Source: Dehalococcoidia bacterium
GTDB lineage: Bacteria > Chloroflexota > Dehalococcoidia > Plut-88900
Reading direction: 5' to 3'
DNA length: 64,000 nucleotides
Assembly (NCBI GenBank): GCA_965249275.1
Contig: CBDFLQ010000005.1
Coordinates: 640,001-704,000, forward strand
Shown: positions 2,599-61,918 of the stretch, in pieces
Layout: each line of letters opens with the position of its first letter
Numbering within the stretch: position 1 is the first letter of the stretch
Position numbers and translations under genes: made by a program
Notes under the pieces: generated by a model
What the model saw: the letters and a program-made list of their open reading frames with translations, nothing else
Told to the model about the DNA's origin: nothing
Database searches by the model: none

Positions 2599-3726
2599 TT
2601 AGTTAAGGAATCCGTAGAGGCGGCCGGTGTTTTCGCAGATCACTTTACGGCGGGCGTTTTCGTCTTTAAGGCCCTTCAGGCTGAACTCGATGGTCTCGAG
2701 GGAGTCGGGCCATACACAGTCGTTGTGGGGGTAGTCGTTGCCCCACAGGACGTTATCTTCGCCGACCAGTGAAAGGATATCTCCGGCGATTCCTTCTTTC
2801 TGGAAGGTGGAGAAGCCTTGTCTGTACCAGTAGGCACTGGGCTTCATGCTCAGGCTCTTGATGCCTTCACTTTCGTGGTCCATGCGGTCTATGACGTAGG
2901 GAATCCAGCCGATACCCGCTTCGCCGAGGACGAACTTGAAATCGGGGAACCTATCGCAAGCCCCCGACATGATGATGCTGCTCAGGTGCTCGATGCCGTC
3001 CAGCTGGGCCATGGTGAGCAGGACGGTCCAATAGGCGTCGAAGTACTCCTTTTCCTTGGGTTCCTTAGCCTTGGGCAAGTTTTCGAGGAGGTGAAAGGAG
3101 AGCGGCATATTACATTCCACCGAGGCCTCCCACAGGACATCCCAGTCTGTGTAGAAGATAGGAATGGAGGCGAGGCCGGCGCGGAGCTCGGCGCCCTTGA
3201 GGCCCAGGCCCGCGGCCCTTCTGAGCTCATCGGCGGCGGCCTGGGGATTGTGGTGGGGCAGGCAGGCCAAACAGGCCAGCCGTTCCGGATTGTGGCTGGC
3301 GAAGGAGGCGGCCCAGTCGTTGTAGATGCTATATACGAGGGAGCGGGCCTCCATGTCACGGATCTGATCGGGGCCGAAAGCCATGCCGTAGATCACCTCA
3401 GCGTCGATGCCGTCCAGGTCCTGGTCCTTGACTCTGAGTTCGGGGTTGGAGGGGTGGTAGATGCCTCGGCGGGAGTCCGCGGAGAAGCCGACTTCTTCCA
3501 GCCGCTGCTCCCTGTGGAAACCGGCGGGATTTGTCCAGGACTCTGCCCTAAACACTCCCACGGGGGTCATGATCTTGCCGTTGGCCTTCCACACGGGACC
3601 CGAGGATGCGTCCTCTACGTGGGGCATCTTGTCCTTCCACTGAGCCGGTGCGTTGTCCACAAAGAGGTCGTGTGGGAGCCAGTTAAGGTCAACATGCCCG
3701 TCGCCGGATATTATGTTGTAGGTCAT
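2599..3726 (-). CDS. Amidohydrolase_2 family protein
   Basis: ISGDGH at the N-terminus, EAGIGW, WGNDYPH. Start moved to ATG 3726 (MTYNII), which has a GGGAGG RBS. Confidence 0.88.
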   Translation of the reverse strand: MTYNIISGDGHVDLNWLPHDLFVDNAPAQWKDKMPHVEDASSGPVWKANGKIMTPVGVFRAESWTNPAGFHREQRLEEVGFSADSRRGIYHPSNPELRVKDQDLDGIDAEVIYGMAFGPDQIRDMEARSLVYSIYNDWAASFASHNPERLACLACLPHHNPQAAADELRRAAGLGLKGAELRAGLASIPIFYTDWDVLWEASVECNMPLSFHLLENLPKAKEPKEKEYFDAYWTVLLTMAQLDGIEHLSSIIMSGACDRFPDFKFVLGEAGIGWIPYVIDRMDHESEGIKSLSMKPSAYWYRQGFSTFQKEGIAGDILSLVGEDNVLWGNDYPHNDCVWPDSLETIEFSLKGLKDENARRKVICENTGRLYGFLN

Positions 3727-4156
3727 CTCTTCCCTCCCGTGTAAACCCTGCTTCATCAGACAACCGGACATGCGAAACCTCGGCACCTTGCCGCGGGCGT
3801 TCCGAGGCGGGATTTACTCTAGCACGCAGCGATTGGGCGTCGCAAGGGAATGTACATTTAGTTGTTGGGGTGGGGGTTGGGTTATGGGCTAGCGGGCGGC
3901 CTCCTTTGGGGCATAGGGTGGGACAACGGAAGGGGCCGCTCCAGATTGATGATCCGGTTGGGCCGACGGGCCGGGGTTTTTGATTGATGTGCGGACTCAG
4001 GCATGAACTTTGATTGTTTTTAGGGAAATTCGTTTTTGGGGAAGGCATGGGCTAGTAGGCGGCGCCTTTCGTGGATGGGGGGAGGTGGGGCAACCAGCCT
4101 CGATGGGATATTGAGTTGTAGCAAGGATTTGTGGGTTCATGTCTGTTCTGGAAGGG

Positions 4157-4819
4157 CAGGCGATGGAAGGTCCGGGACTAGAAACCAGGCCGTGGGTTGC
4201 TGCCGAGCCGTCGGCGCCGGGCTGGATTATCCCCACATGTTGTCGGCTGCGGTCAGGGTTGTGTGGGGCAGATCCCTCCGTGAGCGGCACTTGACCGGAC
4301 CGCTGACGGGGAAGATGCCGCCTTAGGCGGACTTTCATAACCGGCGTCCCGGTGCATCCGCCGGATAGACGGATGGCAGGGACGGCGGGACAAACAAGGC
4401 ACGAGGGCCTTGCTAAACCGGGGGTCGGTTGACCTACCGGGAAAACCGGCGCGCAATGGGCCGGGGTAAACGCACCCGATGATGGGGGGCGTTGAATCGG
4501 CAGGGGCGTCGTTGGACGGGGCCTGCCGAGCATAGTCTGTGGATCTTCCATCGCCTGGGTTGCGGGGGAAGGTGAGCCGAGGCCTTTGGTATGAGGAGAT
4601 GGCGGCTTTCGCTTGAGCCGAGGGGCGGCGCTTGGGCCGCCCTTTGGGATGGGCTGGGACGTTGAGTCCTCGGGGCCGGGGATGGGCTTCCCCCTGGGTT
4701 GTGGTTCCTCCTTAGGGTTTAGGGTGAGTGACGAGCTAGTCGGGGGTGAATATAGTACAAGTGTTTTGCTTTAGTCAAGGGGTTCGTGTCACTTTTTGCC
4801 AAGTGGGATCACCCTCACC
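4157..4819. ncRNA. Putative structured non-coding element, copy A (IR-closed multi-hairpin domain 4157-4557 plus conserved leader/promoter 4557-4819)
   Basis: AGGCGATGGAAGGTCC (4158-4173) pairs with GGATCTTCCATCGCCT (4541-4556); many internal hairpins; the flank is homologous to 25557-25832; no conserved ORF. Confidence 0.55.
4749..4778 (-). promoter_or_regulatory. sigma70-type promoter with overlapping LexA-like box
   Basis: Minus strand TTGACT-18-TATATT with AAAC-ACTT-GTAC in the spacer; conserved in copy B. Confidence 0.55.
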
Positions 4820-5152
4820 CTAGCCCTCTCCCATCAGAGGGAGAGGGGACAGGACGCCCCGCCCTCTCCGCCTCCGGGGATGGATTCCGGCTCGGCGGGG
4901 GGTGCGCCTTCAGGAGGGATGGGTTCCTGCCTCCGCAGGAATGACGGGGGAGTGGGGGGTGGGTGGGTGGGAGGCGATCACGTGGTACTGCTCCTATGCG
5001 GGCACCCCCCCGCTCATACTTCGAGAGCCTCCCGCCTCGGCGGATCTTCGACAGCACGATCGGGCCCGCCCGGGCCGTGGATTCGCGCCTGAGGCGTACC
5101 CTCCAGAGGCGAGTGGGGCACTTGCAGCCCGATCGGAGTCTGGAATGACGGG
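4809..5152 (+). repeat. Cluster of REP-like palindromes carrying micro-insertions
   Basis: CCCTCACCCTAGCCCTCTCCC..GGGAGAGGGG (R1), CTTCGA..CTCAGCACGA (R2) and GGATTCC..GGAATGAC (R3) types recur throughout the window. Confidence 0.8.
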
Positions 5153-5211: not shown

Positions 5212-6339
5212 ATGGCGGACTACAGGGTTATCTCATCGGACAATCACATAGTGGAGCCGCCTAACTTGTGGCTTGATAGGATGGAACCGGGGTTCCGGGA
5301 CCAGGCCCCGGCCATGCGGGATACGGAGAAAGGGCCGTTCTGGTTTGTAGAAGACAAGCCGACCTTCAACGTCACAAGCATGGCGAGCCAGGCCGGGAAG
5401 CGGTTTGAGGACGCCGAATCGCTGCAGACCGTGGATGCCTGGGAGAATGCGAGGCCAGGGGCCTACATCCCGGAAGAGGCCATTAAGGACATGGACTTCG
5501 ACGGGATAGACGTCGGGATCGTATATCCGAGCCTGACCATATTCCTGTACGCGTTCGTGGAGGGGAGCGAACTGCTCTCGGCGATACTGCGGGCTTACAA
5601 CGGTTTCGCGGCGGATTACTGCCAGGCCCAGCCGCGTAGGTTGAAGGGAATCGCCACGATAAACATTGACGACGTGTCGGTCGGGGTAGAGGAACTGAAG
5701 CGGTGCGCGAAACTCGGTTTTGTAGGCGCGGCTATACCGGAATACATGGCGGCGCGACCTTACTTCGATGAAGCTAACGAGCCGTTATGGGCCACCGCCC
5801 AGGACCTGGGGATGCCGCTGGGACTGCATATCTCGACGGCGAGGATCCAGGCGGGGCGAGGGTGGGACCGAGAGCTGGACGCCTTCAACTTCTCCACCCT
5901 GATGCTGGACAATGCCGACTTCTGGGTGAGGGTATCGCTGACGGAGATGATATTAAGCGGCGTGTTCGAACGCTACCCCAATCTGAGGGTCGGGGTTGCG
6001 GAGCACGAGCTCAACTGGGTGCCCTACTGGATAGAGCGGATGGACTACAGCTACAGCGAACGGGCGGCGGGACGCGAGGGGTTCCAGCTGAAGAACGGAA
6101 TGGTGCCGAGCGACGTGTTTCACTCCAACTGCTTTGTCGATTTCCAGGAGGACGCCCTGGGCATCACCCACCGGGACATCATAGGGGTGGACAACATAAT
6201 GTGGGGATCCGACTACCCCCACACAGAGGGCACGTTCCCCAAGTCACGGGAGTTTATCGAGAACACGCTGGCGGACTGCACGCAGGAAGAGAAAGAGAAG
6301 ATAGTAGCGGGCAACGCGGCGCGGATCTACAAGGTCTAG
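5212..6339 (+). CDS. Amidohydrolase_2 family protein
   Basis: ISSDNH, SGVFERYP, WGSDYPH motifs; GGAGG RBS. Confidence 0.9.
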   Translation: MADYRVISSDNHIVEPPNLWLDRMEPGFRDQAPAMRDTEKGPFWFVEDKPTFNVTSMASQAGKRFEDAESLQTVDAWENARPGAYIPEEAIKDMDFDGIDVGIVYPSLTIFLYAFVEGSELLSAILRAYNGFAADYCQAQPRRLKGIATINIDDVSVGVEELKRCAKLGFVGAAIPEYMAARPYFDEANEPLWATAQDLGMPLGLHISTARIQAGRGWDRELDAFNFSTLMLDNADFWVRVSLTEMILSGVFERYPNLRVGVAEHELNWVPYWIERMDYSYSERAAGREGFQLKNGMVPSDVFHSNCFVDFQEDALGITHRDIIGVDNIMWGSDYPHTEGTFPKSREFIENTLADCTQEEKEKIVAGNAARIYKV

Positions 6340-7719: not shown

Positions 7720-7777
7720 ACCCTCACTCTCCTCGGCGAGTCTTAGACCCTAGCCCTCTCCTGTCAAGGGAGAGGGG
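7720..7777 (+). repeat. R1 REP-like palindrome interrupted by a 21-bp insertion (7728-7748)
   Basis: CCCTCAC[TCTCCTCGGCGAGTCTTAGAC]CCTAGCCCTCTC..GGGAGAGGGG. Confidence 0.7.
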
Positions 7778-7823
7778 ATAAGAGTACGCCACTGATCGCT
7801 GTGGAATTGGGTGAAATAAGAGC

Positions 7824-9044
7824 TTAGAGGAGGAGGCTGGAGGGTTTTTCCAGGTAGCTTTTGATTTCGTTGACGAACTGAGCGGCCTCTGCGCCGTTGA
7901 CGACGCGGTGGTCGGCGGAGATTGTGCACTGCATGATATCGGCGATGGTGATCTGGCCGTCCCGGACGACTGGCTGTTTCGTCACGCTTCCCACGGCGAT
8001 GCTGGCGCTCTGCTTGGGGTTGATGATGGCGATGAAGCTATCGATCTGGAACATGCCAAGGTTGCTTATGGCAATGGTGGCCTCGGTGTACTCCTGGGGC
8101 TTGAGGACGCCATTGCGGGCTCGGGTGCTAAGGTCCCGGCTGGCCGCCGAGATATCTTTCAGGCTCTTGCCTCTGCAGTCGAGTATCGCGGGGGCGATGA
8201 GGCCGTCTTCCAGAGCTATGGCGACGCCTATGTTGAGGGATGGGTTGTGCTTTATTTTGCCGTCGGCGTAGTGGGAGTTGAAGGCAGGGAACTTGGCGAG
8301 AGCAAGGGCGGAGGCCTTGATAATAAGGTCGTTGACGGTGAGGCGGGCCTCGCCGGCCCAGAGCTCGTTAAGTTCCTCGCGGAGGGTCATGGCGCGGGTC
8401 ATGTCTATGCTTGCGGTGACGTAGAAGTGGGGCATCTCCTGCTTGCTCTGGGTCATGCGTCGGGCTATGGTCTGACGCATCTTTGAGAGCTCGCTGACAT
8501 CCGCCACTGCTGACGGCGCGGGGGCCGGGGCCTGGTCTGCCTCGGCGGCGGCGAGGACGTCCTCCTTGGTGATTCTGCCTTTGGGCCCCGTGCCTGTGAC
8601 CGTGGAGAGGTCTACGCCCTTCTCCTCGGCTATGCGTTTTGCCAAGGGGGATACGAGAATGCGGTCACCCTTGGAGGGGGCGGGGGGAGTGGGGGTGGGC
8701 TCAGAAATAACCGATGCAGGCGTGGCTGCGGTGGAGGGGGTGGGAGAGTCACCCTCACCCTGACCCTCTCCCGTCGAGGGAGAGGGGATTTGAGGGAGGT
8801 CTTCGTCGGCGGAGGCGATGATGCCAATGATCTGGCCGACGGGTACGGTGATGCCTTCCGTGACTACGATACGACGCAGGAGACCGGAGGCGAAGGACTC
8901 GACTTCTACGGTAGCCTTGTCGGTCTCTATCTCGACGATGGGTTCGCCCCTGTCGACGTTATCGCCTTCCGCCTTGAGCCAGCGGACGACGGTGCCCTCC
9001 TCCATATCGAAGCCCATCTGGGGCATTATTACGTCGGTGGCCAA
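7824..9044 (-). CDS. pdhC: Dihydrolipoamide acetyltransferase E2
   Basis: Lipoyl ETDKA, E3-binding GTGPKGRI, catalytic DHRVVNG; follows pdhAB. Confidence 0.92.
   Translation of the reverse strand: MATDVIMPQMGFDMEEGTVVRWLKAEGDNVDRGEPIVEIETDKATVEVESFASGLLRRIVVTEGITVPVGQIIGIIASADEDLPQIPSPSTGEGQGEGDSPTPSTAATPASVISEPTPTPPAPSKGDRILVSPLAKRIAEEKGVDLSTVTGTGPKGRITKEDVLAAAEADQAPAPAPSAVADVSELSKMRQTIARRMTQSKQEMPHFYVTASIDMTRAMTLREELNELWAGEARLTVNDLIIKASALALAKFPAFNSHYADGKIKHNPSLNIGVAIALEDGLIAPAILDCRGKSLKDISAASRDLSTRARNGVLKPQEYTEATIAISNLGMFQIDSFIAIINPKQSASIAVGSVTKQPVVRDGQITIADIMQCTISADHRVVNGAEAAQFVNEIKSYLEKPSSLLL
8752..8787 (+). repeat. R1 REP-like palindrome located in frame within the pdhC linker
   Basis: CCCTCACCCTGACCCTCTCCCGTCGAGGGAGAGGGG closely matches the intergenic copies at ~4812 and ~39783; translated as PSPSTGEGQGEG. 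Confidence 0.8.
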
Positions 9045-25083: not shown

Positions 25084-25200
25084 TCTGCCTACGTCGCCCC
25101 TACGGGCTTGGGGTTATTAAGTCCTCCTGAGGCGGACCCTCCAAAGGCGGATGTTCCATCTTCGATTGGGGTTTGGGGGTTTGGTTTGGTTGTTGGGGGG

Positions 25201-25832
25201 TAGGCGATGGAAGGTCCGAGACTCGTGTGCGGGGAGGCGGGAGGCCAGCCTGCGATGACCCCACGTGTCTCTTAGCTAGGCGGACGAGGTGAGTGGGGTG
25301 TTCTCGTCCACAAGACGCTTGGCTCGACCATTCGGAGGAATGGGAGCACGAACCCGCTGCCGTCGTCTACCGAACGGAACTCTCGGATGGTGACGACGGT
25401 GGAGTCCCATAAGGGCTCGATGGCCCTTAGCAAGCCCTGCATAGGCGGGCTGTTATATTTCGCTGGGCTATGCGCATAGCGTTGACTCGAACACTCCGGG
25501 TGAATGGTGCGTCGAGTAGGCTGGTCCCGCACGCCTACATGTTGCTTAGAGTTGATGGACCTTCCATCGCCTGATGGTTGGGGGGGGGTGAGCCGGGGCC
25601 TTTAGGTGAGGAGATGGCGGCTTTCGCTTGAGCCTGGGAGCGGCTAACGCCGCTCTTTGGGATGGGCTGGGACGTTGAGTCCTCGGGGGCCGGGGATGGT
25701 GTTCCCCCTGGGTTGTGGTTCCTCCTTGGCCTTGGGGTGGGTAACTGGCCAGTCGGGGGTGAATATAGTACATGTGTTTTGCTTTGGTCAAGGGGTTCGT
25801 GTCACATTTTGCCAAGTGGAATCACCCTCACC
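25201..25832. ncRNA. Putative structured non-coding element, copy B (IR-closed domain 25202-25572 plus conserved leader/promoter)
   Basis: Perfect 16-bp IR AGGCGATGGAAGGTCC / GGACCTTCCATCGCCT; serial hairpins; flank homologous to 4541-4819. Confidence 0.55.
25762..25791 (-). promoter_or_regulatory. sigma70-type promoter with overlapping LexA-like box
   Basis: Minus strand TTGACC-18-TATATT containing AAAC-ACAT-GTAC. Confidence 0.55.
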
Positions 25833-25918: not shown

Positions 25919-26037
25919 GTTACCAAGGGGGAGGGGAAGGAAGGCGAGGAATGGTGTGAGAGGGCAAGTCCTAGATTCCTCGCGGGGCGTCGGAATGGTG
26001 GGGAGAGGGGGTTGGGTGGAGAGGTTGAGGGTGGCCG

Positions 26038-26378
26038 CGACGGATTGGCATAACGGGGTCGCCACCCCTCTCGACCCTTCGACGGTGCTCAGGGTGAGCG
26101 GCCCCACCCCAGGGATGGATTCCGGCTCTCGGCGGCCGGAATGACGGGAGAGAAAGGGGTATGGGGCTTTCTAGGGACGCGACGGATTGGCAGTGCGGGG
26201 CCGCCCCCCCGCTCGACCCTTCGACGGTGCTCCCGCCTCGGCGGATCTACGACAGGATGAGCGGCCCCTCTCCAAGGATGGATTCACGCCTCGGCGCACG
26301 CCACAGGCGCACCCTCCCGAGGCGGACGTTCCGCTTGCAGCATCTTCGACCGGCTCTCGGGGGCCGGAATGACGGGGG
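26038..26378 (+). repeat. Two tandem R2+R3 composite repeats: first empty, second with four micro-insertions
   Basis: GACGGATTGGCA..CCCTTCGACGGTGCTCAGGGTGAGCGGCCCC..GGATTCCGGCTCTCGG..GCCGGAATGAC present twice. Confidence 0.85.
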
Positions 26379-39763: not shown

Positions 39764-39781
39764 GGGGTAGGGGTCGTAGTC

Positions 39782-39850
39782 ACCCTCACCCTAGCCCTCT
39801 CCCATCGAGAGAGAGGGTACTAGACTCCCCCAGACGCCGGGAATGACGGG
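39782..39850 (+). repeat. R1+R3 REP-like composite between convergent genes
   Basis: CCCTCACCCTAGCCCTCTCCCATCGAGAGAGAGGG then ..GGGAATGAC. Confidence 0.78.
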
Positions 39851-46024: not shown

Positions 46025-46154
46025 GAGGTCGGCATTGCCTCGGAGTGCGAAGTTGGAGGTTCTGGGGATGTCGGCGGCTGGGAGGTCAGGGTCGGAGGAT
46101 GCGCGGGGTGGGGTAGGGATGGGCGCGGGTGTAGATAGGCGAGACGACGCTTGA

Positions 46155-46401
46155 GATTCCTCGCGGGGCCTCGGAATGACAGGGGTGAAGGGGCTCGGTT
46201 GGGAATCAGGACTACCACGACGGATTAGCTGTCTGGGGCCGCCCCCCGCTCGACCCTTCGAGTGCCTCAGGGTGAGCGGCTCCGCCTCGAGGATGGATTC
46301 ACGCCTCGGCACACTCCAAAGGCGCATCCTCCTTAGGCGGCCGTTAGGCTTGCAGCATCTTCGACCGGCTCTCGGCGGCCGGAATGATCCGCCTAAGGCG
46401 G
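46155..46401 (+). repeat. R3+R2+R3 composite with a triple nested micro-insertion (46301-46365)
   Basis: Same architecture as 26179-26378. Confidence 0.82.
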
Positions 46402-47304: not shown

Positions 47305-48507
47305 CTAGGTTTCTTGGGAGCGGGTGGGGATGATGATTAGGACCAGGGCGGAGGCCACGATGGTAATTCCGGAGAATACGAAAGTGGACTGTATTGATAT
47401 GTGGTCGGCGATGAGGCCGCCTATCACGGCTCCGAATGCGCCGATCGCCATGGACGCCGTATAGATCAGGCCGACGGATGTGCCGTGAACCCCGGGAGGC
47501 GACAGGTCAATGGCTGTGGCAACGAAAATTGGGAGGTAGGTGAAGGTGACCGCGGCGATGGCAATAATGGTAAGGAGCAGTTGAATCCCTGGGTCGGCGA
47601 AGGCGAGCGCCACGCAGAGGAGGCCGAAGATTGTCAGTTCAGGCACGAGCACCGACTTACGACCGAACCGGTCCGATACGAATCCCATGATCGGATGTGT
47701 TGCTATGCCGACGGTATGCAGGAGGGAGATGTACACGCCAACTTTGAAGGTCGAAAACTCGAGGTGTTCCCTCAGATATATCGGCAGGAAGGTTACCATG
47801 GCGTAGTCGCCCATGCTTACTACGCCGCACAGTACCAACACGGCTATTAGACGCCGGTTCTTGAACAGCGGTACAACGGCTGAGAAATATTCTTTGCTCG
47901 ATGTTGCGCCCCGCTGGCCTTTCATGCCTCGGAGAGCGAGCCATACGACAATCGCGGCGAGGGCGGCGGGGAAGAAGCTGTACTGGAGAAGCTGGGGCCA
48001 CAGGATGACTGAGAGTAGCCCTCCAGCCACCAAGGGGCCCAGCACCTCTCCCACACTGGCCCCTGCCCCGTGCATAGTGAGGGCCAAGCCTCTTCTTGCA
48101 GGGAAACGTGCGGATAGAGCGGCTATGGCCGTAGGGTGCCACATGGAAGTGCCCACGCCGACCAGGATCACAGCCAACGCTATAGCGTAGTACGTTTGCA
48201 GAGACCCGGAGGCCAGGTAGCCGAAGGCGACCAGCATAATAGCCGCCAGCAGTATCAGCGGCCGCTTGCTGCTGTAGCGGTCGGCGATGAAGCCGCCGGG
48301 CATTGCGGCAGCGCCGCTGCTGACGTCCCGGGACATGACGAGGGCCCCGGCGGCGAGGTTGCTAAGCCCCAACCCGACCTTGATCTCGGGAAAGACGACC
48401 GAAAAGGCAGCGCTGTACAGGTGTTTGAGCCCGTGGCCCGTGACCATGGTGAACGCTAGCAGTTTAGGGCCTGGTTCGCGAGTGGGGGGCTGGGTGGAGG
48501 GGTCCAT
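47305..48507 (-). CDS. MFS transporter
   Basis: About 12 hydrophobic segments, ADR, WHP, SDRFGRK. ATG 48507 has GGAGG. Confidence 0.9.
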   Translation of the reverse strand: MDPSTQPPTREPGPKLLAFTMVTGHGLKHLYSAAFSVVFPEIKVGLGLSNLAAGALVMSRDVSSGAAAMPGGFIADRYSSKRPLILLAAIMLVAFGYLASGSLQTYYAIALAVILVGVGTSMWHPTAIAALSARFPARRGLALTMHGAGASVGEVLGPLVAGGLLSVILWPQLLQYSFFPAALAAIVVWLALRGMKGQRGATSSKEYFSAVVPLFKNRRLIAVLVLCGVVSMGDYAMVTFLPIYLREHLEFSTFKVGVYISLLHTVGIATHPIMGFVSDRFGRKSVLVPELTIFGLLCVALAFADPGIQLLLTIIAIAAVTFTYLPIFVATAIDLSPPGVHGTSVGLIYTASMAIGAFGAVIGGLIADHISIQSTFVFSGITIVASALVLIIIPTRSQET

Positions 48508-48548
48508 CGTCAACACCTCCGTTTAAGGAGGTATAGAGCCTCCGTTCA

Positions 48549-49772
48549 CTATGCGCGGGCTATGGGCGCGGATTCCGTGTTGTCGCGGGTTGGGACGAAG
48601 ATCAGCAGGAATGCGGCGGCTATGACGACTATGCCGGCGAAGATAAAGGTCGACGGGAGGGAGACTTCGTCGGCGAGGAGGCCGCCGAGGATCGCACCGA
48701 TACCTCCGAATAACATGGAACCGGTGTAGACGAGGGCCACGGAAGTGCCGTGGACGCCGGGGGGAGAGAGGTCTATGGCGTAGGCGACGAAGATGTGGTG
48801 GAAAGTGAACATGACTGCGCCGATAGCGATGATGGTCAGGATTAGTTGAGGGCCCTCGGAGGCGTAGGCGAGGGCGATGCAGAGGAGTCCGAAGAAAATC
48901 ATGCCTGGGACAAGGGCGATCTTTCGGCCGTACTTGTCGGAAATGTACCCCATAAGGGGGTGTGTAACTATGCCTATGGCGTTCAAGAGCGAGGCATAGA
49001 TACCGACCTCTAAAGAAGAAAACCCGAGGTCTTCGCTCAGATAGATTGGGACGAAGGTTGTGATGACGTGATTGCTCATAGAGCGAAAGCCCGAGAGGAC
49101 GATCACGGCGATAAAGGCCCGGTTCTTGAGCAGAACGCCGGAGGTGGCGAAATACTCCTTGAGGGAGGTGACACCCTGCTGGCCCTTGAGATTCCTGAGA
49201 GCAAACCACACCAATACGGCGGCGAGGGCTGCGGGGATGAAACTGAGTTGAAAGAGTTGGGGCCAGGAGATGAGCAGAAGCAAGGCGCCGGCTATGAGAG
49301 GTCCGAGGATCTCGCCTGCGGACCCTCCCGACCCGTGGAGGGAGATTGCAAAACCAATCCTGGTTGGGAATCGGGCCGACAGGGAAGCGATGGCGGAGGG
49401 ATGCCAGAGGGATACGCCGATGCCGAAAAGGACGATGGAAATGGCGACAGCGAAATATCTCTCCACAGCACCGGCTGCGAGGTAGCCAACAGCTATAAAG
49501 GCCAAGGAAATGGTGAGGATTATGGCCCACTTGCCGCTGAAGCGGTCGGCGAGGAAGCCGGAGGGCATTGTGGAGACCCCGGCAGAGACGTCTCGTGCAG
49601 TGACCAGGGCGCCGGCGGCGAGATTGGACAGCATGAGGCTGGCCTTGATCTCCGGGAGGACGATCATGAAGGCGGCGGCGTAGAGGTGCTTGAGCCCGTG
49701 GCCGGCTACCGTGGTTGTGGCAAGGAGAGTGCGGCCCTCGTTTGACGATTGGGGGGTAGTAGGAGAGTCCAT
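48549..49772 (-). CDS. MFS transporter (paralog of the downstream gene)
   Basis: GHGLKHLY shared with the paralog. Start MDSPTT at 49772; the longer ORF overlaps the true 3' end of the carboxyltransferase. Confidence 0.88.
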   Translation of the reverse strand: MDSPTTPQSSNEGRTLLATTTVAGHGLKHLYAAAFMIVLPEIKASLMLSNLAAGALVTARDVSAGVSTMPSGFLADRFSGKWAIILTISLAFIAVGYLAAGAVERYFAVAISIVLFGIGVSLWHPSAIASLSARFPTRIGFAISLHGSGGSAGEILGPLIAGALLLLISWPQLFQLSFIPAALAAVLVWFALRNLKGQQGVTSLKEYFATSGVLLKNRAFIAVIVLSGFRSMSNHVITTFVPIYLSEDLGFSSLEVGIYASLLNAIGIVTHPLMGYISDKYGRKIALVPGMIFFGLLCIALAYASEGPQLILTIIAIGAVMFTFHHIFVAYAIDLSPPGVHGTSVALVYTGSMLFGGIGAILGGLLADEVSLPSTFIFAGIVVIAAAFLLIFVPTRDNTESAPIARA

Positions 49773-49776
49773 AGAG

Positions 49777-51385
49777 TTAGAGGCGGGCTCCGTACCTGGG
49801 GTTGGGGCCGAGGGTTTGCTTGACAACACCCTGTGCGGCCTTGAGGAATCGGATGATGATGCCGCGGGTCTCGGTAGGGTCAATCATCTCCTCGACGCCG
49901 AAGGCCTCGGCGGTCTTCCAGGGGGATGCGGCCTTGGCGCATTCGGTTCTCGACCTCGGCGACTAGGGCAGCGGGGTGGCCGGAGGCCTGGATCCGGCGT
50001 CGGTGGGCTGAAAAGACGCCGCCCTCGATGGGGATGCCTACGAACTCGGCAGTGGGCCAAGCGAGGCGGAGGTTCAGCCGGCTGGCGTTGCCCGTAGCGA
50101 GGCCGGCCATGCCGTAGCACTTGTGCAGATAGATCGTGACCATGGGGACGTTTGCCTCAAGGAGGGCCTGGAGGGCGCGCATCCCTTTGCGGAGAGTACC
50201 ATCCCTCTCGGCGTCGAGGCCGATCATGAAACCGGGGATGTCTACGAAGTAGACCATTGGGATGTGGAAGGTGTCGCAGAACTCTATGAAGCGGGTCTTC
50301 TTCTCGGAGCCCGGGCCGTCTAGGGCGCCGCCGAGGTGCATGGGGTTGTTGGCGAGAATGCCGACGGGGTAGCCTCCGAAACGGGCGAAGCCGCATACGA
50401 AGGCCGGAGCGCGGTGGCCTCCGATTTCGAAGAAGGAGCCGCGGTCGGCGATGACCTTGATGATGTCACGTATGTCGTAGGCGGCTTTTGGGTCCTCGGG
50501 CATAATTTCGAGGAGGACCTCGTCCTGGCGGTCGGGGGGATCATCGGTGGGTACGTAGGGGGGCATCTCCCAGACGTTCTGCGGGAGGTAGCTGAGGACG
50601 GTCTTGATCTGGCGAATGGCGTCGGCGTCATCTTCGGCGATGTTATCCACGACACCGGAGATGACTGCGTGGACCTCGGCTCCGCCCAACTCGAACTTGT
50701 CGATGCGGTGACCCAGGGCCCGCTCGACGAGGGGAGGGCCACCGGCGAAGATGCAGGCGGCCCTGGTCATTACACTGAAGTGGGAGACCACGAGTCGGGC
50801 TCCGGTGACCCCTGCGCAGGCGCCCATGGCTGCAGCCATTACCGGGACCTCTCCCATTAGTTTGTAGGTAGGATCGATACTGATGCCGCTGACGAGGGGA
50901 GGGGAGCCCGCGTGAGCTTCCCAGCCGACACCGCCTCCGACGCCTTCCATGAGCATTACAAGGGGGATGCGGTATTCGTGGGCGAGATCCTCAACGAAAC
51001 CAGCCATGCCGCCCTTGAGCCGGTCATGGTGGATCTCAAGTACACCGCCTTCGACGGTGAAGTCCTCTCCGCCTACGGCAACGTCCCGGCCATTGACCTG
51101 GCCGAGACCCATAACGTAGCCGGAAGCGGTGGGCGGAAGGCGGTTGCCGTCGGGGTCGAAACGATCATGGACGGCAACGGTACCGACTTCGAGGAAGGAA
51201 CCGGGGTCTGTGATGTGGCCGATACGCTCTCGGATGGTCCAGCGACCTGCGGCACGTTGCCGGGCGATGGTCTCAGGGCCGCCGAGCTTTAGAGCGCGCT
51301 CCCGGGCCTCGACGAGCTTGGTTCGGGCGGTTTCCCATGTGAAAGCAGACGTTGGCGGCTCCGTGGGTTGGGTGGTTGAGTCCAT
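49777..51385 (-). pseudogene. Acyl-CoA carboxylase carboxyltransferase, copy 2, with a +1 frameshift at ~49937
   Basis: CGC-C-AAG versus paralog CGT-AAG. The shifted frame continues KAASPWKTAEAFGVEEMIDP..YGARL to TAA at 49777. May be a sequencing error. Confidence 0.8.
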
Positions 51386-51388
51386 AGG

Positions 51389-52963
51389 TTAGAGGCGGGC
51401 TCCGTATCTGGGATTGGGGCCGAGGGTTTGTTTGACAACACCCTGTGCGGCTTTGAGGAAGCGGATGATGATGCCGCGGGTCTCGGTCGGGTCGATCATC
51501 TCCTCTACGCCGAAGGCTTCGGCGGTCTTCCATGGGGATGCGGCCTTACGCATGCGGTCCTCAATCTGGGCGATATAGGCGGCGGGGTCGTCTGATGCCT
51601 GGATCTGGCGTCGGTGGGCTGAAAAGACGCCGCCTTCAATAGGCATGTCTCCCCACTCGGCGGTGGGCCATGCGAGGCGGAGATTCAGTCGGCTGGCGTT
51701 GCCCGTGGCGAGGCCGGCCATGCCGTAGCACTTGTGCAGATAGACCGAGACCATGGGAACGTTGGCGTCGTGAAGGGCCTGGAGGGCGCGCATCCCTTTG
51801 CGGAGGGTGCCCTCCCTCTCGGCGTCGGGACCGATCATGAAGCCGGGGACGTCTACGAAGTAGATCATGGGCATGTGGAAGGTGTCGCAGAAGTCTATGA
51901 AGCGGGTCTTCTTCTCGGAGCCCGGGCCGTCGAGGGCGCCGCCGAGGTGCATGGGATTGTTGGCGAGAATGCCGACGGGGTAGCCTCCGAAACGGGCGAA
52001 GCCGCATACGAAGGCCGGGGCGCGGTGGCCGCCGATTTCGAAGAAGGAGCCGCGGTCGGCAACGACCTCGATGATGTCCCGTACGTCGAAGGCGGCCTTT
52101 TGGTCCTCGGGCATGATTTCGAGGAGGACCTCATCCTGGCGGTCAGGGGGGTCGTCGGTGGGGACGTAGGGGGGCATCTCCCAGACGTTTTGGGGGAGGT
52201 AGCTGAGAACGGTCTTGATCTGGCGTATGGCGTCGGCGTCGTCCTCGGCGATGTTATCCACGACACCGGAGATGACTGCGTGGACCTCGGCCCCGCCCAG
52301 CTCGAACTTGTCGATACGGTGACCCAAGGCCCGCTCGACGAGTGGAGGGCCGCCGGCGAAGATGCAGGCGGCCTTGGTCATGACGCTGAAGTGGGAGACG
52401 GCGAGTCGGGCGCCGGTGACACCCGCGCAGGCGCCCATGGCTGCGGCCATTACTGGGACCTCTCCCATTAGCTTGTAGGAAACGTCGATTTTGTGGCCGC
52501 TGACAAGGGGAGCGTGGCCCTGGTGCGCCTCCCAGCCAACACCGCCTCCGACGCCTTCCATAAGCATGACAAGGGGGATGCGGTATTCGTGGGCGAACTC
52601 TTCAATGAAGCCGGCCATACCGCCCTTGAGTCGATCATGTTGGGTGTCAATCACACCGCCTTCGACGGTGAAGTCCTCTCCGCCGACAGCCACGTCCCGG
52701 CCATCAATCTGGCCGAGACCCATAACGTAGCCGGATGCGGTGTCCGGAAGGCGGTTGCCGTCGGGGTCGAAGCGCTCATGGACGGCTACGGTGCCGACTT
52801 CGAGGAAGGAACGGGGGTCGGTGATGTGGTCGATACGCTCGCGGATGGTCCAGCGTCCAGCGGCGCGCTGGCGGGCGACGGAATCGGGGCCGCCGAGTTG
52901 TAGAGCGCGCTCCCGTGCCTCGACGAGCTTGGTTCGGGCGGCTTCCCATGTGAATCCGGCCAT
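51389..52963 (-). CDS. Acyl-CoA carboxylase carboxyltransferase (PccB/MccB-like), copy 1
   Basis: DFTVEGG, GGPPLV, LGG..H..SG, DVPGFMIG, IDP.ETR; GGAG RBS. Confidence 0.9.
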   Translation of the reverse strand: MAGFTWEAARTKLVEARERALQLGGPDSVARQRAAGRWTIRERIDHITDPRSFLEVGTVAVHERFDPDGNRLPDTASGYVMGLGQIDGRDVAVGGEDFTVEGGVIDTQHDRLKGGMAGFIEEFAHEYRIPLVMLMEGVGGGVGWEAHQGHAPLVSGHKIDVSYKLMGEVPVMAAAMGACAGVTGARLAVSHFSVMTKAACIFAGGPPLVERALGHRIDKFELGGAEVHAVISGVVDNIAEDDADAIRQIKTVLSYLPQNVWEMPPYVPTDDPPDRQDEVLLEIMPEDQKAAFDVRDIIEVVADRGSFFEIGGHRAPAFVCGFARFGGYPVGILANNPMHLGGALDGPGSEKKTRFIDFCDTFHMPMIYFVDVPGFMIGPDAEREGTLRKGMRALQALHDANVPMVSVYLHKCYGMAGLATGNASRLNLRLAWPTAEWGDMPIEGGVFSAHRRQIQASDDPAAYIAQIEDRMRKAASPWKTAEAFGVEEMIDPTETRGIIIRFLKAAQGVVKQTLGPNPRYGARL

Positions 52964-61061: not shown

Positions 61062-61089
61062 GGGTTTAGGGGGCGCGTGAGTGGGCAAG

Positions 61090-61368
61090 TCCTAGATTCC
61101 TCGCGGGGCCGCGGAATGACAGTAATATAACCTTGGCTGTGGAAGAGGAGCCATGTGTCACAGTGAACGGGGATGGATGGGATGGATCCTGGCTCGGGGG
61201 CCGAGGTGATGGAAAAGGCGCGAGGGGCGGGGGGTGGGGTGGTAGTTGGGACAAGGGCGTGACGGATTGGCAGTCCGGGACCTCCCTCCGCTCGACCCTT
61301 CGACGGTGCTCAGGGTGAGCGGCCCCACGCCGCCCTGGAATGAAAGTTTTCCTGCGCGGGAATGATGG
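61090..61368 (+). repeat. R3 and R2 REP-like repeats
   Basis: AGATTCCTCGCGGGGCCGCGGAATGAC; GACGGATTGGCAGT..CCCTTCGACGGTGCTCAGGGTGAGCGGCCCC. Confidence 0.75.
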
Positions 61369-61422
61369 GGTGAGTGGTGAGTGGTGAGTGGTGGGGAATA
61401 TTCTCATCGAAGAGGACCCTCA

Positions 61423-61647
61423 TTAGAAGGTCGGTTTGACCAGACTCTCCCTCTCGCTATCCAGTACAGCTTCCACCTGCGACCTTTTGACACTGGGGAA
61501 CCACTCCAAGAACTCACCAATCGACGCGCCATCCTTGAGGTTTTCGAAGAGGGCGGATACCGGCACCCTTGTACCTCGAAACACCCAGATGCCCCCCATC
61601 CTCTCAGGGTCTCGTTCCACGACGCTGCTAGTCTCCCATACTGTCAT
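61423..61647 (-). CDS. DUF433 domain protein (putative antitoxin)
   Basis: DPERMGG..VFRGTRVPV, EFLEWFP. Confidence 0.87.
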   Translation of the reverse strand: MTVWETSSVVERDPERMGGIWVFRGTRVPVSALFENLKDGASIGEFLEWFPSVKRSQVEAVLDSERESLVKPTF

Positions 61648-61769
61648 GACTTGTACTGCCCTTCCCAGTGCCTATAAACGACGTTGGCTTGTCCGTAAGT
61701 TGTAAACATTATATCTCGGAGGCGGCACTGACTGAATTATTTGGGTGGTGGTGGTTGGGGCAAGCGCGT

Positions 61770-61900
61770 GACGGAATGGCAGTCCGGGGCCTCCTCCCCC
61801 CGCTCGACCCTTCGACGGTGCTCAGGGTGAGCGGCCCCTCGCTGGGGATGGATTTACGCCTGAGGCGCACTTGCAGCCCGATCGGGGGCATGGATGACGG
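61770..61900 (+). repeat. R2+R3 composite with a single 22-bp insertion (61856-61877)
   Basis: GGATTT[ACGCCTGAGGCGCACTTGCAGC]CCGATCGG..ATGAC. Confidence 0.78.
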
Positions 61901-61918
61901 AGAGGGGGTGGGATTGGG

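Follow-up and report, generated by a model that had tools for sequence, protein, structure and literature searches.

A non-autonomous transposon family with an inward promoter and a helix-closed folded interior, inserted beside −35 hexamers in a Dehalococcoidia genus

Introduction

A 64,000-nt stretch of the genome of a Dehalococcoidia bacterium (contig CBDFLQ010000005.1, positions 640,001 to 704,000; here the window) contains, near its left end, a non-coding element that we call copy A. We find that copy A represents a real and unusual non-autonomous transposon with terminal inverted repeats (TIRs), which combines exact insertion on the −35 side of host promoters, a promoter of its own that points inward and a conserved, helix-closed, folded interior of ~400 nt. 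A first-pass annotation of the same DNA had described a two-copy family of multi-hairpin domains, each ending at an inverted repeat. The family is far larger, as this genome alone holds 59 helix-closed domains, and its unit does not stop at the inverted repeat but continues for ~240 nt on one side and for 50–110 nt on the other.

The window’s own genome (G000; 2.9 Mb, 7 contigs, 87% complete) was compared with eight congeners (G001 and so on), giving nine genomes of one genus, and with three sister genera. Copy counts for other genomes come from a pattern scan of genome contigs, which returned at least 80 loci; among the matches listed, all records are titled ‘MAG: Dehalococcoidia bacterium’, and the arms are present in 78 of 80. 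Full-text literature searches, as far as their search listings and the opening lines of abstracts go, returned no published description of the element family.

Results

Terminal repeats, target duplications and empty sites

Complete members of the family run from TGATCCCGTTCACATAGAGGGGTGACA at the left terminal repeat (IRL) to ...GTCACTAATCTACCGAACGAGTACA at the right terminal repeat (IRR), and are 737–870 nt long except for copies with nested inserts. Their termini read TG...CA within imperfect terminal inverted repeats of ~27 bp, and the consensus ends TGATCCCGTTCACATAGAGGGGTGACA and TGTACTCGTTCGGTAGATTAGTGACAC have TG, CGTTC, TAGA and GTGACA in common. A T precedes 16 of 16 IRL copies, and an A starts all 24 of the listed IRR flanks. 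Immediately outside the TG...CA ends, an identical 5-nt direct repeat is found in 8 of the 14 IRL–IRR pairs of G000; over 7 nt, the two flanks agree at 4–7 positions in 22 of 24 pairs, compared with mostly 1–3 of 7 in a shifted control.

Orthologous sites differ in whether they carry the element. At locus L200, a 737-nt element is absent from G003, where the flank matches overlap by 7 nt, and likewise from G001, where a 27-nt gap separates them. At locus L201, a 779-nt element is absent from both G003 and G001, and the flanks overlap by 12 and 4 nt, respectively. Apart from the gapped G001 site at L200, the flanks at these empty sites join over the target duplication. The site of copy A is filled in G002 and has no element in G005 or G003, and G001 carries another subfamily ~240 nt away. 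The window’s second member, copy B, occupies a site that is empty in G001, G003 and G008, with 76–128 nt between the two flanking genes, and that holds a different subfamily of the element in G005. With its terminal repeats, its 5-bp target duplication and its presence or absence at orthologous sites, the family is a TIR transposon.

Family size, subfamilies and age

A search of G000 with copy A and its flanks gave 47 matches, and a scan with the 11-nt core of the closing arm gave 64 pairs of arms, 59 of them spaced 310–544 nt apart. In 54 of these 59 domains, the same module (M1) lies on one fixed side, followed by a second module (M2) that exists in three versions. There are 10 subfamilies of domains, with 13, 12, 10, 6, 5, 4, 4, 2, 2 and 1 copies, and copy A is in subfamily 0. 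Beyond G000, the family occurs in all eight other genomes of the genus and in none of the three sister genera; four matches elsewhere in the class consist of a 24–26-nt piece of a repetitive extragenic palindromic (REP) sequence only.

Identity between copies reaches 95.7% at most, with a median of 91% for the best partner of each copy. Copies of the resident insertion sequences (ISs) show almost no such differences, and we take the low identity between copies of the element to mean that the family is old. REP sequences and bacterial interspersed mosaic elements are built from short palindromic units of 20–40 nt in mosaics, whereas the unit found here is 740–870 nt long and has a fixed module order; this comparison covers unit size and module order, not RAYT genes.

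Insertion next to host promoters

The IRR module occurs 23 times in G000, each time as part of an element, and in ~22 of these 23 cases, as read from the listings, a hexamer of the TTGNNN type (TTGACA, TTGACC, TTGATA and others) stands at a fixed offset past it. A TAnnnT hexamer follows ~17–18 nt beyond the −35-type hexamer, and all the spacers differ. Taken together with the TG...CA ends, this puts the 5-bp duplication immediately next to the −35 hexamer, and each host promoter is unique in sequence. Among the matches listed for six other genomes, 26 more IRR ends have the same arrangement, ~17 of them beginning with TTG, and across the IRL–IRR pairs a TAnnnT hexamer stands at the −10 distance in 20 of 24. 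Orientation is constant, with the host promoter facing in the same direction as the element’s inward promoter.

A co-directional gene lies downstream of 38 of 57 copies, usually 30–400 nt away. These 38 genes include aminoacyl-tRNA synthetases, def, asd, ribF, lgt, uvrA, fumarase and oxidoreductases; Amidohydro_2 genes account for 6 of the 38, which may just reflect a common family in this genome. Since the downstream genes are unrelated in function, we rejected the reading that they form a regulon.

Left ends are also found alone. At positions 928804–928830 (− strand) of contig C6 in G000, a solo perfect left end is followed by CAACCCC, TTGCGA-N17-TAAAAT, a CIRCE-like inverted repeat and a groES-like open reading frame (ORF), an arrangement that a deletion between the element’s own −35 and the host −35 would yield exactly. 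Partnerless solo left ends also occur in G002 (position 3404961) and G005 (position 142171).

An inward promoter and the predicted transcript

Just inside the IRL, a near-consensus sigma-70 promoter points into the element and is kept in 57 of 58 copies of G000; among the matches listed for other genomes, it is present in 63 of 78. In G000, its −35 hexamer reads TTGAC[C/T/A] in 55 of 57 copies, and its −10 hexamer is mostly TATATT or TATTAT. The distance from this promoter to the closing helix has a median of 188 nt and a range of 179–254 nt, despite the three unrelated spacer versions. An AAGGAGG motif lies in the same region in 53 of 58 copies of G000 and in 77 of 78 of the other-genome copies listed, and over all copies the tail at the far side of the domain is composed of 42% C, 36% A, 12% G and 10% T.

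The predicted RNA would be ~650 nt long and, for copy A, would be read from the minus strand with a start near position 4742. It would carry, in this order, a small covarying palindromic hairpin, the AAGGAGG motif, M1, the folded domain and a C-rich, G-poor tail ending just before the host promoter. Contigs assembled from the RNA libraries of three studies, 88–99% alike, cover positions 4159–4674, and one of them, 505 nt long, corresponds to 4159–4624; as assembled contigs, they give neither strand nor proof of transcription. No contig from the three libraries covers 4702–4783, and as gaps in contig cover prove nothing, we made no use of this gap. The domain is probably transcribed.

A heavily paired, non-coding interior

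The closing inverted repeat proposed in the first-pass annotation is real: its arm, AGGCGATGGAAGGTCC, matches the window four times (Table 1), compared with 0.08 matches expected, and none of 100 shuffles reaches four. For copy A (positions 4157–4557), the folding energy is −217.7 kcal/mol on the plus strand (z = −8.4) and −186.1 kcal/mol on the minus strand (z = −6.7), and on either strand 0 of 100 dinucleotide shuffles reach the native energy.

From an alignment of 27 subfamily-0 domains of five genomes, the plus-strand consensus has 113 pairs at −151 kcal/mol, and 98.6% of 3036 cells are paired, compared with 30–46% in a control with the partners slid along. The minus-strand consensus has 101 pairs at −114 kcal/mol, with 98.2% of cells paired. 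Inner helices named in the first-pass annotation are part of this 27-member fold: CCCCACA/TGTGGGG, CGTCCC/GGGACG around CATCCG/CGGATG, AAGG/CCTT and CGGCAG/CTGCCG. Changes on both sides of a pair affect 5 of the 113 plus-strand pairs in 17 cells, a cell count reached by 0 of 500 shuffles and a pair count reached by 7 of 500; on the minus strand, 4 pairs in 16 cells have changed on both sides. With so few double-change pairs, covariation within the subfamily is modest.

Covariation is clearer between subfamilies than within them. In the closing helix of 137 copies, positions 2–12 are invariant, and positions 13–15 switch from A-T/C-G/G-C to G-C/T-A/C-G between clades. The earlier phrase ‘structure conserved without sequence’ was too strong: most of the closing helix is conserved in sequence, with covariation limited to positions 13–15, and within subfamily 0 double changes affect just 5 of 113 pairs. 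Copies A and B, which had been called unalignable inside, do belong to different subfamilies (0 and 6), but motifs remain common to both: GGTCCGGGACT after the arm, CCCCAC/GTGGGG, GACGGYGG and a hairpin of the GGGCTCGATGGCCC type. For M1, the fold from a global alignment was poor, and pairwise covariation was swamped by the lineage signal. At one orthologous locus, the tail and domain of copy A are 97.0% identical between G000 and G002, next to 96.3% for the adjacent coding sequence and 91.0% for the intergenic flank.

The C-rich strand is open for ~131 codons in 7 of the 13 subfamily-0 copies, and the arm includes an ATG. We rejected a coding reading: the other subfamilies reach a stop after 4–90 codons, indels of 1–2 nt are common, and variable sites are spread over the codon positions as 39/29/37, without codon periodicity. 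For four ORFs of copy A, a Pfam search at E ≤ 1 gave nothing, and copy A offers no support for a terminase origin. There is no transposase ORF inside the element and no conserved frame, and its ORFs are broken in most subfamilies.

With Rfam 15, no covariance model matched anywhere in the window at the gathering score, nothing relevant appeared at E ≤ 10 over positions 3700–5000, which include copy A, and nine other copies gave only sub-threshold, miRNA-like hairpin matches at E ≤ 0.5. The Rfam models of RNase P, tmRNA, 6S, group I and II introns, HEARO, OLE, GOLLD and ROOL matched none of these sequences, and the earlier remark that the domain shows no hallmark of RNase P, tmRNA, 6S or group I/II introns stands for the window, the copy A region and the nine further copies. 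The domain family is real, heavily base-paired and non-coding, with a conserved long-range helix. The first-pass proposal of a large structured RNA or single-stranded DNA family is right to this extent; it is wrong in picturing a free-standing locus, as the domain is the interior of a mobile unit.

Copies A and B in the window

Table 1. Positions of the element’s features within the window
Feature	Position	Strand	Details or basis
3′ tail of the RNA sense	4090..4157	-	Boundary from the G005 comparison and the subfamily-0 alignment
Closing helix, 5′ arm (+ strand)	4158..4173	.	Arm AGGCGATGGAAGGTCC, matched on +
Helix-closed multi-hairpin domain, subfamily 0	4158..4556	.	Shuffle z-scores and consensus fold
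Closing helix, 3′ arm (+ strand)	4541..4556	.	AGGCGATGGAAGGTCC matched on - with 1 mismatch; one G.T pair with the 5′ arm
Module M1, kept in all subfamilies	4557..4713	-	Invariant blocks GAGGAGATGGC, GCTTGWGCC, GGGATGGGCT and CGTTGAGTCCTC
AAGGAGG, Shine-Dalgarno-like (CCTCCTT on +)	4707..4713	-	~35 nt past the predicted start; no start codon behind it
Short palindrome/hairpin GACGAGCTAGTC just past the predicted start	4730..4741	-	Sequence and copy comparison
Sigma-70-type promoter TTGACT-18 nt-TATATT	4749..4778	-	10/12 consensus matches; reads leftward into the element
GTGTCAC(T)n, inner part of the left terminal repeat	4786..4800	-	Point where copy A ends
Copy B (subfamily 6)	25114..25815	-	Arms 25202-25217 (+) and 25557-25572 (-); promoter TTGACC-18-TATATT on the minus strand, 25791-25762 (promoter scan)

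Homology between the window and G005 stops at ~4086–4090, which sets the left boundary of copy A. The tail there is C/A-rich on the minus strand and G/T-rich on the plus strand, contains the terminal motif ATATTGAGTTG, and is not followed by the outer inverted-repeat module (the IRR, or ‘M0’), which is missing from copy A. At its other end, copy A has lost ~20 nt from the outside of the left terminal repeat and stops near 4796–4804, where a REP-like hairpin (4805–4853) abuts the truncated repeat. Within M1, the hairpin at 4620–4645 varies in stem sequence between copies while its pairing is kept, with at least six stem versions counted by eye. The palindrome past the predicted start likewise appears in other copies, at the same place, as GATTGGCCAATC, GGCTGGCCAGCC, GGTCTAGACC or GTTCGAAC.

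Both copies have ordinary metabolic genes as neighbours. Copy A lies between divergent Amidohydro_2 genes at 2599–3786 (−) and 5212–6339 (+), and its RNA sense aims at the left one, whose start lies ~300 nt beyond the element. Several TGATTG/CAATCA words are found at 3930–4030, between copy A and the start of this gene. Copy B lies between a gene for 5-FTHF cyclo-ligase and a D-Ser-dehydratase-like gene.

Elsewhere in the window, direct repeats of 160–300 nt (D1, D2 and D5), spaced 1265–1612 nt apart and 71–94% alike, extend over 48251–51848; they are probably paralogous genes in tandem.

Transposases, resident insertion sequences and REP-like repeats

Transposase genes with an rve domain occur in all nine genomes and number 22 in G000, where 7 of the 22 lie within 1.4 kb of an element. 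One resident IS is 1045 bp long, encodes a 329-aa rve protein, has TG...CA ends and carries a GGAAT duplication. Its two ends agree with the element’s IRR at 17 and 16 of 27 positions; of 5000 shuffles, 2 and 8 do as well, respectively. Across the nine genomes, IRL–IRR pairs span 739–995 nt, with one exception of 2076 nt in G002 that encloses a nested IS whose rve gene encodes 438 aa. The rve IS families were considered as possible parts of the element and rejected, as they have their own ends and insert into the REP-like repeats that pile up at the element’s promoter end.

Three IS families were seen in this context. Two of them, each with near-identical copies, are inserted in REP-like repeats on contigs C5 to C7 of G000 (for example, C7:510076–511035). 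One is the 1045-bp IS, found at ...CGGAAT|GACGG...; the other, ~1320 bp long with a 401-aa rve protein, lies inside CCCTCTCCC hairpins. The third, with the 438-aa rve protein, is the one nested in the G002 element, and it stands beside several elements in G005.

The REP-like repeats belong to at least two families, CACCCTCACCCTAGCCCTCTCCC..GGGAGAGGGG hairpins and GACGGATTGGCAG..CGCTCGACCCTTCGACGG..CTCAGGGTGAGCGG units. Besides the hairpin that abuts copy A (4805–4853), the window holds REP-like repeats at 7737–7783, 8747–8793 and 39778–39824, and also at 26033–26372, 46137–46387 and 61077–61911. REP-like mosaics adjoin the promoter end of the element and do not occur at the empty sites in sister species. 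In some copies, such as those at C6:733581 and C6:525713 of G000, a REP mosaic of 330–450 nt separates the outer left end from the GTGACA(C/T) just before the element’s −35. The element’s promoter thus seems to attract insertions of other repeats.

For two gene families of other mobile systems, the searches were largely negative. PF00078 (RVT_1) was found in only three of the nine genomes and is absent from G000, G001, G002 and G005, which hold many copies of the element. PF07282 (TnpB-type) scored above the cut-off in one of the nine genomes, which is not G000; IscB-specific models were not part of this search.

Discussion

Proposed mobilisation in trans and a transcript that may act in cis

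In the account that we favour, an rve-type transposase moves this non-autonomous transposon in trans, and the element’s structured transcript acts in cis. On balance, copy A is likely to be an old, end-worn member of this ORF-less family of 740–870-nt DNA transposons. An rve-type DDE transposase would have moved the elements in trans, and the resident 1045-bp IS is a candidate source. The earlier remark that no transposase is adjacent holds for the window, but the element belongs to a kind that is moved in trans. Once the element is inserted, the folded RNA would most likely act in cis, as a stable and self-limiting leader that lets a strong promoter sit beside a host promoter, and such a leader would tune or insulate the neighbouring gene. 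The weakest step in this sequence is the last, in which selection at each locus would keep the promoter and the fold long after transposition had stopped.

Several results weigh against this account. Concerning movement, copy A, which lacks both outer repeats and any recognisable duplication, is placed in the family only through its homology to complete copies. The ungapped IRL and IRR agree at 13 of 27 positions, which 297 of 5000 shuffles reach; the IRL is unlike the IS ends (11–12 of 27 positions); a search of the nine genomes with IRL and IRR patterns found no autonomous copy with the element’s ends; and the best pair of copies at 95.7%, with a median of 91%, gives no sign of recent movement. 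Since no IRL–IRR pair in the nine genomes encloses only a transposase gene and the end similarity is one-sided, mobilisation in trans by an rve transposase is a step that we infer.

Concerning the RNA, the library contigs are silent on strand and on true transcription, and the plus strand folds better (consensus −151 versus −114 kcal/mol) although the promoter implies the minus strand. Wobble counts give the promoter’s strand no advantage: the helices common to both strands’ predictions contain 14 G.T and 7 A.C cells, and closing-helix mismatches across the 137 copies are 43 G.T, 52 A.C and 66 of other kinds. Position 17 of the closing helix is G.T, T.G or C-G, which pairs only on the plus strand. 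The union of both strands’ helices gives 66 G.T and 38 A.C cells, counts that are biased by the larger plus-strand prediction. We tried to call the strand from such wobble pairs and dropped the attempt, the counts not being decisive. Finally, a role in cis has to reckon with a co-directional downstream gene in only 38 of 57 copies, and with the unrelated functions of those genes.

Alternative explanations

The transcript may do more than our favoured account assumes. It could be part of an RNA-assisted machinery for placement at −35 hexamers, or the copies could form a genus-wide set of ~60 cis-acting leader RNAs that couple a strong upstream promoter to host promoters. We consider either version unlikely, but if one were true, it would represent a hitherto undescribed type of mobile regulatory RNA in bacteria.

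Another explanation is domestication, in which the copies would now be trans-acting structured RNA genes, ~60 RNAs of 10 types serving, for example, as scaffolds, sponges or protein partners. The transposon origin would then be history, and service to the cell would explain the kept promoter and fold. The copies are indeed old (95.7% for the best pair, 91% for the median), and yet 57 of 58 have retained their promoter and 98.6% of the pairs are intact; the orthologous domain is conserved like coding sequence; all eight congeners have the family; and RNA-library contigs cover the domain. Selection would, however, be hard to sustain over ~60 redundant copies, no partner gene is known, presence and absence vary between close species, the interior differs greatly between subfamilies, and gene conversion among copies could equally keep their likeness. 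We give domestication only an outside chance.

We think it quite improbable that the fold exerts its effect in DNA, forming a cruciform or single-stranded intermediate during transposition or replication, with the RNA being incidental. That both strands fold far better than shuffles would fit such an intermediate, as would the symmetric mismatches of the closing helix, expected where there is no RNA-type selection for wobble pairs, and the conserved 11-bp core of the arm could be a protein site. But a DDE enzyme that cuts or copies double-stranded DNA, as indicated by the terminal repeats with their TG...CA ends and by the 5-bp duplication, has no use for a 400-nt fold; the arms lie 50–250 nt inside the ends; and the promoter and its constant distance from the helix are conserved.

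An RNA-guided or RNA-dependent mobile element, of the kind of omega-RNA, bridge RNA, group II intron or retron systems, would suit a transcript that spans nearly the whole element, an unusually exact choice of target and a large, conserved fold, but is highly improbable given that RVT_1 is lacking in six of nine genomes including G000, that no TnpB-type domain exceeds the cut-off in eight of nine, that Rfam models (HEARO, group II and others) do not match, that target duplications and terminal repeats are foreign to those systems, and that the variable parts track the subfamily rather than the copy or the target.

Implications of the favoured account

If the element is a transposon moved in trans whose transcript acts in cis, a bacterial DNA transposon can select the site directly upstream of a −35 hexamer as a safe haven comparable to those of Ty3 and Tf1 in yeasts, and can keep a 400-nt helix-closed RNA fold together with its own promoter over species-level divergence. 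In that case, such units, placed beside the promoters of housekeeping and catabolic genes, make up about 1.5% of a small symbiont genome and may shape the expression of dozens of genes. More than 130 natural sequence variants are available for working out a new large RNA fold.

Comparison with known systems

Miniature inverted-repeat transposable elements (MITEs) and mobile insertion cassettes, such as the promoter-bearing Correia elements of Neisseria, lack a transposase, have TIRs and a target duplication, occur as many dispersed intergenic copies that are moved in trans, and may bear promoters and be transcribed. The present element is like them in having no transposase gene, in its TIRs and target duplication and in its many dispersed intergenic copies. 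It is unlike them in its larger size (740–870 nt), in an internal helix-closed domain of 310–544 nt with 10 subfamilies, in a conserved closing helix separate from the terminal repeat, in a strong promoter aimed inward, and in its insertion at a constant register, 5 bp from the −35 hexamer and in one orientation.

Among autonomous elements, the comparison is with insertion sequences of the IS481 and IS3 types, which have rve transposases and whose family features are those of ISfinder-type descriptions. The element and the resident rve IS have TG...CA ends and a 5-bp duplication in common, and the ~27-bp repeats of the IS match the IRR at 16–17 of 27 positions. The IS copies differ in being near-identical and in inserting into REP-like repeats rather than beside −35 hexamers; the element’s IRL also differs from the IS ends, and no transposase lies inside the element.

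With HEARO and the omega-RNAs of IS200/IS605 elements, including their ORF-less copies, the element shares a multi-copy, mobile-element-borne structured RNA of a few hundred nucleotides. It differs in having no Rfam match and no copy-specific guide, and in a TnpB-type domain that exceeds the cut-off in only one of nine genomes; IS200/IS605 elements are not known to have terminal inverted repeats or to make a target duplication. OLE, GOLLD, ROOL and raiA resemble the domain in the size and complexity of their folds, but they are single- or few-copy genes without transposon ends, and the present domain has no Rfam match.

For its choice of site, the closest parallels are eukaryotic retroelements tethered to transcription factors: Ty3 inserts at Pol III starts and Tf1 at Pol II promoters. 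The element described here follows the same safe-haven strategy, inserting at a constant place just upstream of promoters, but it differs from these retroelements in being a DNA element that sits beside a bacterial −35 hexamer.

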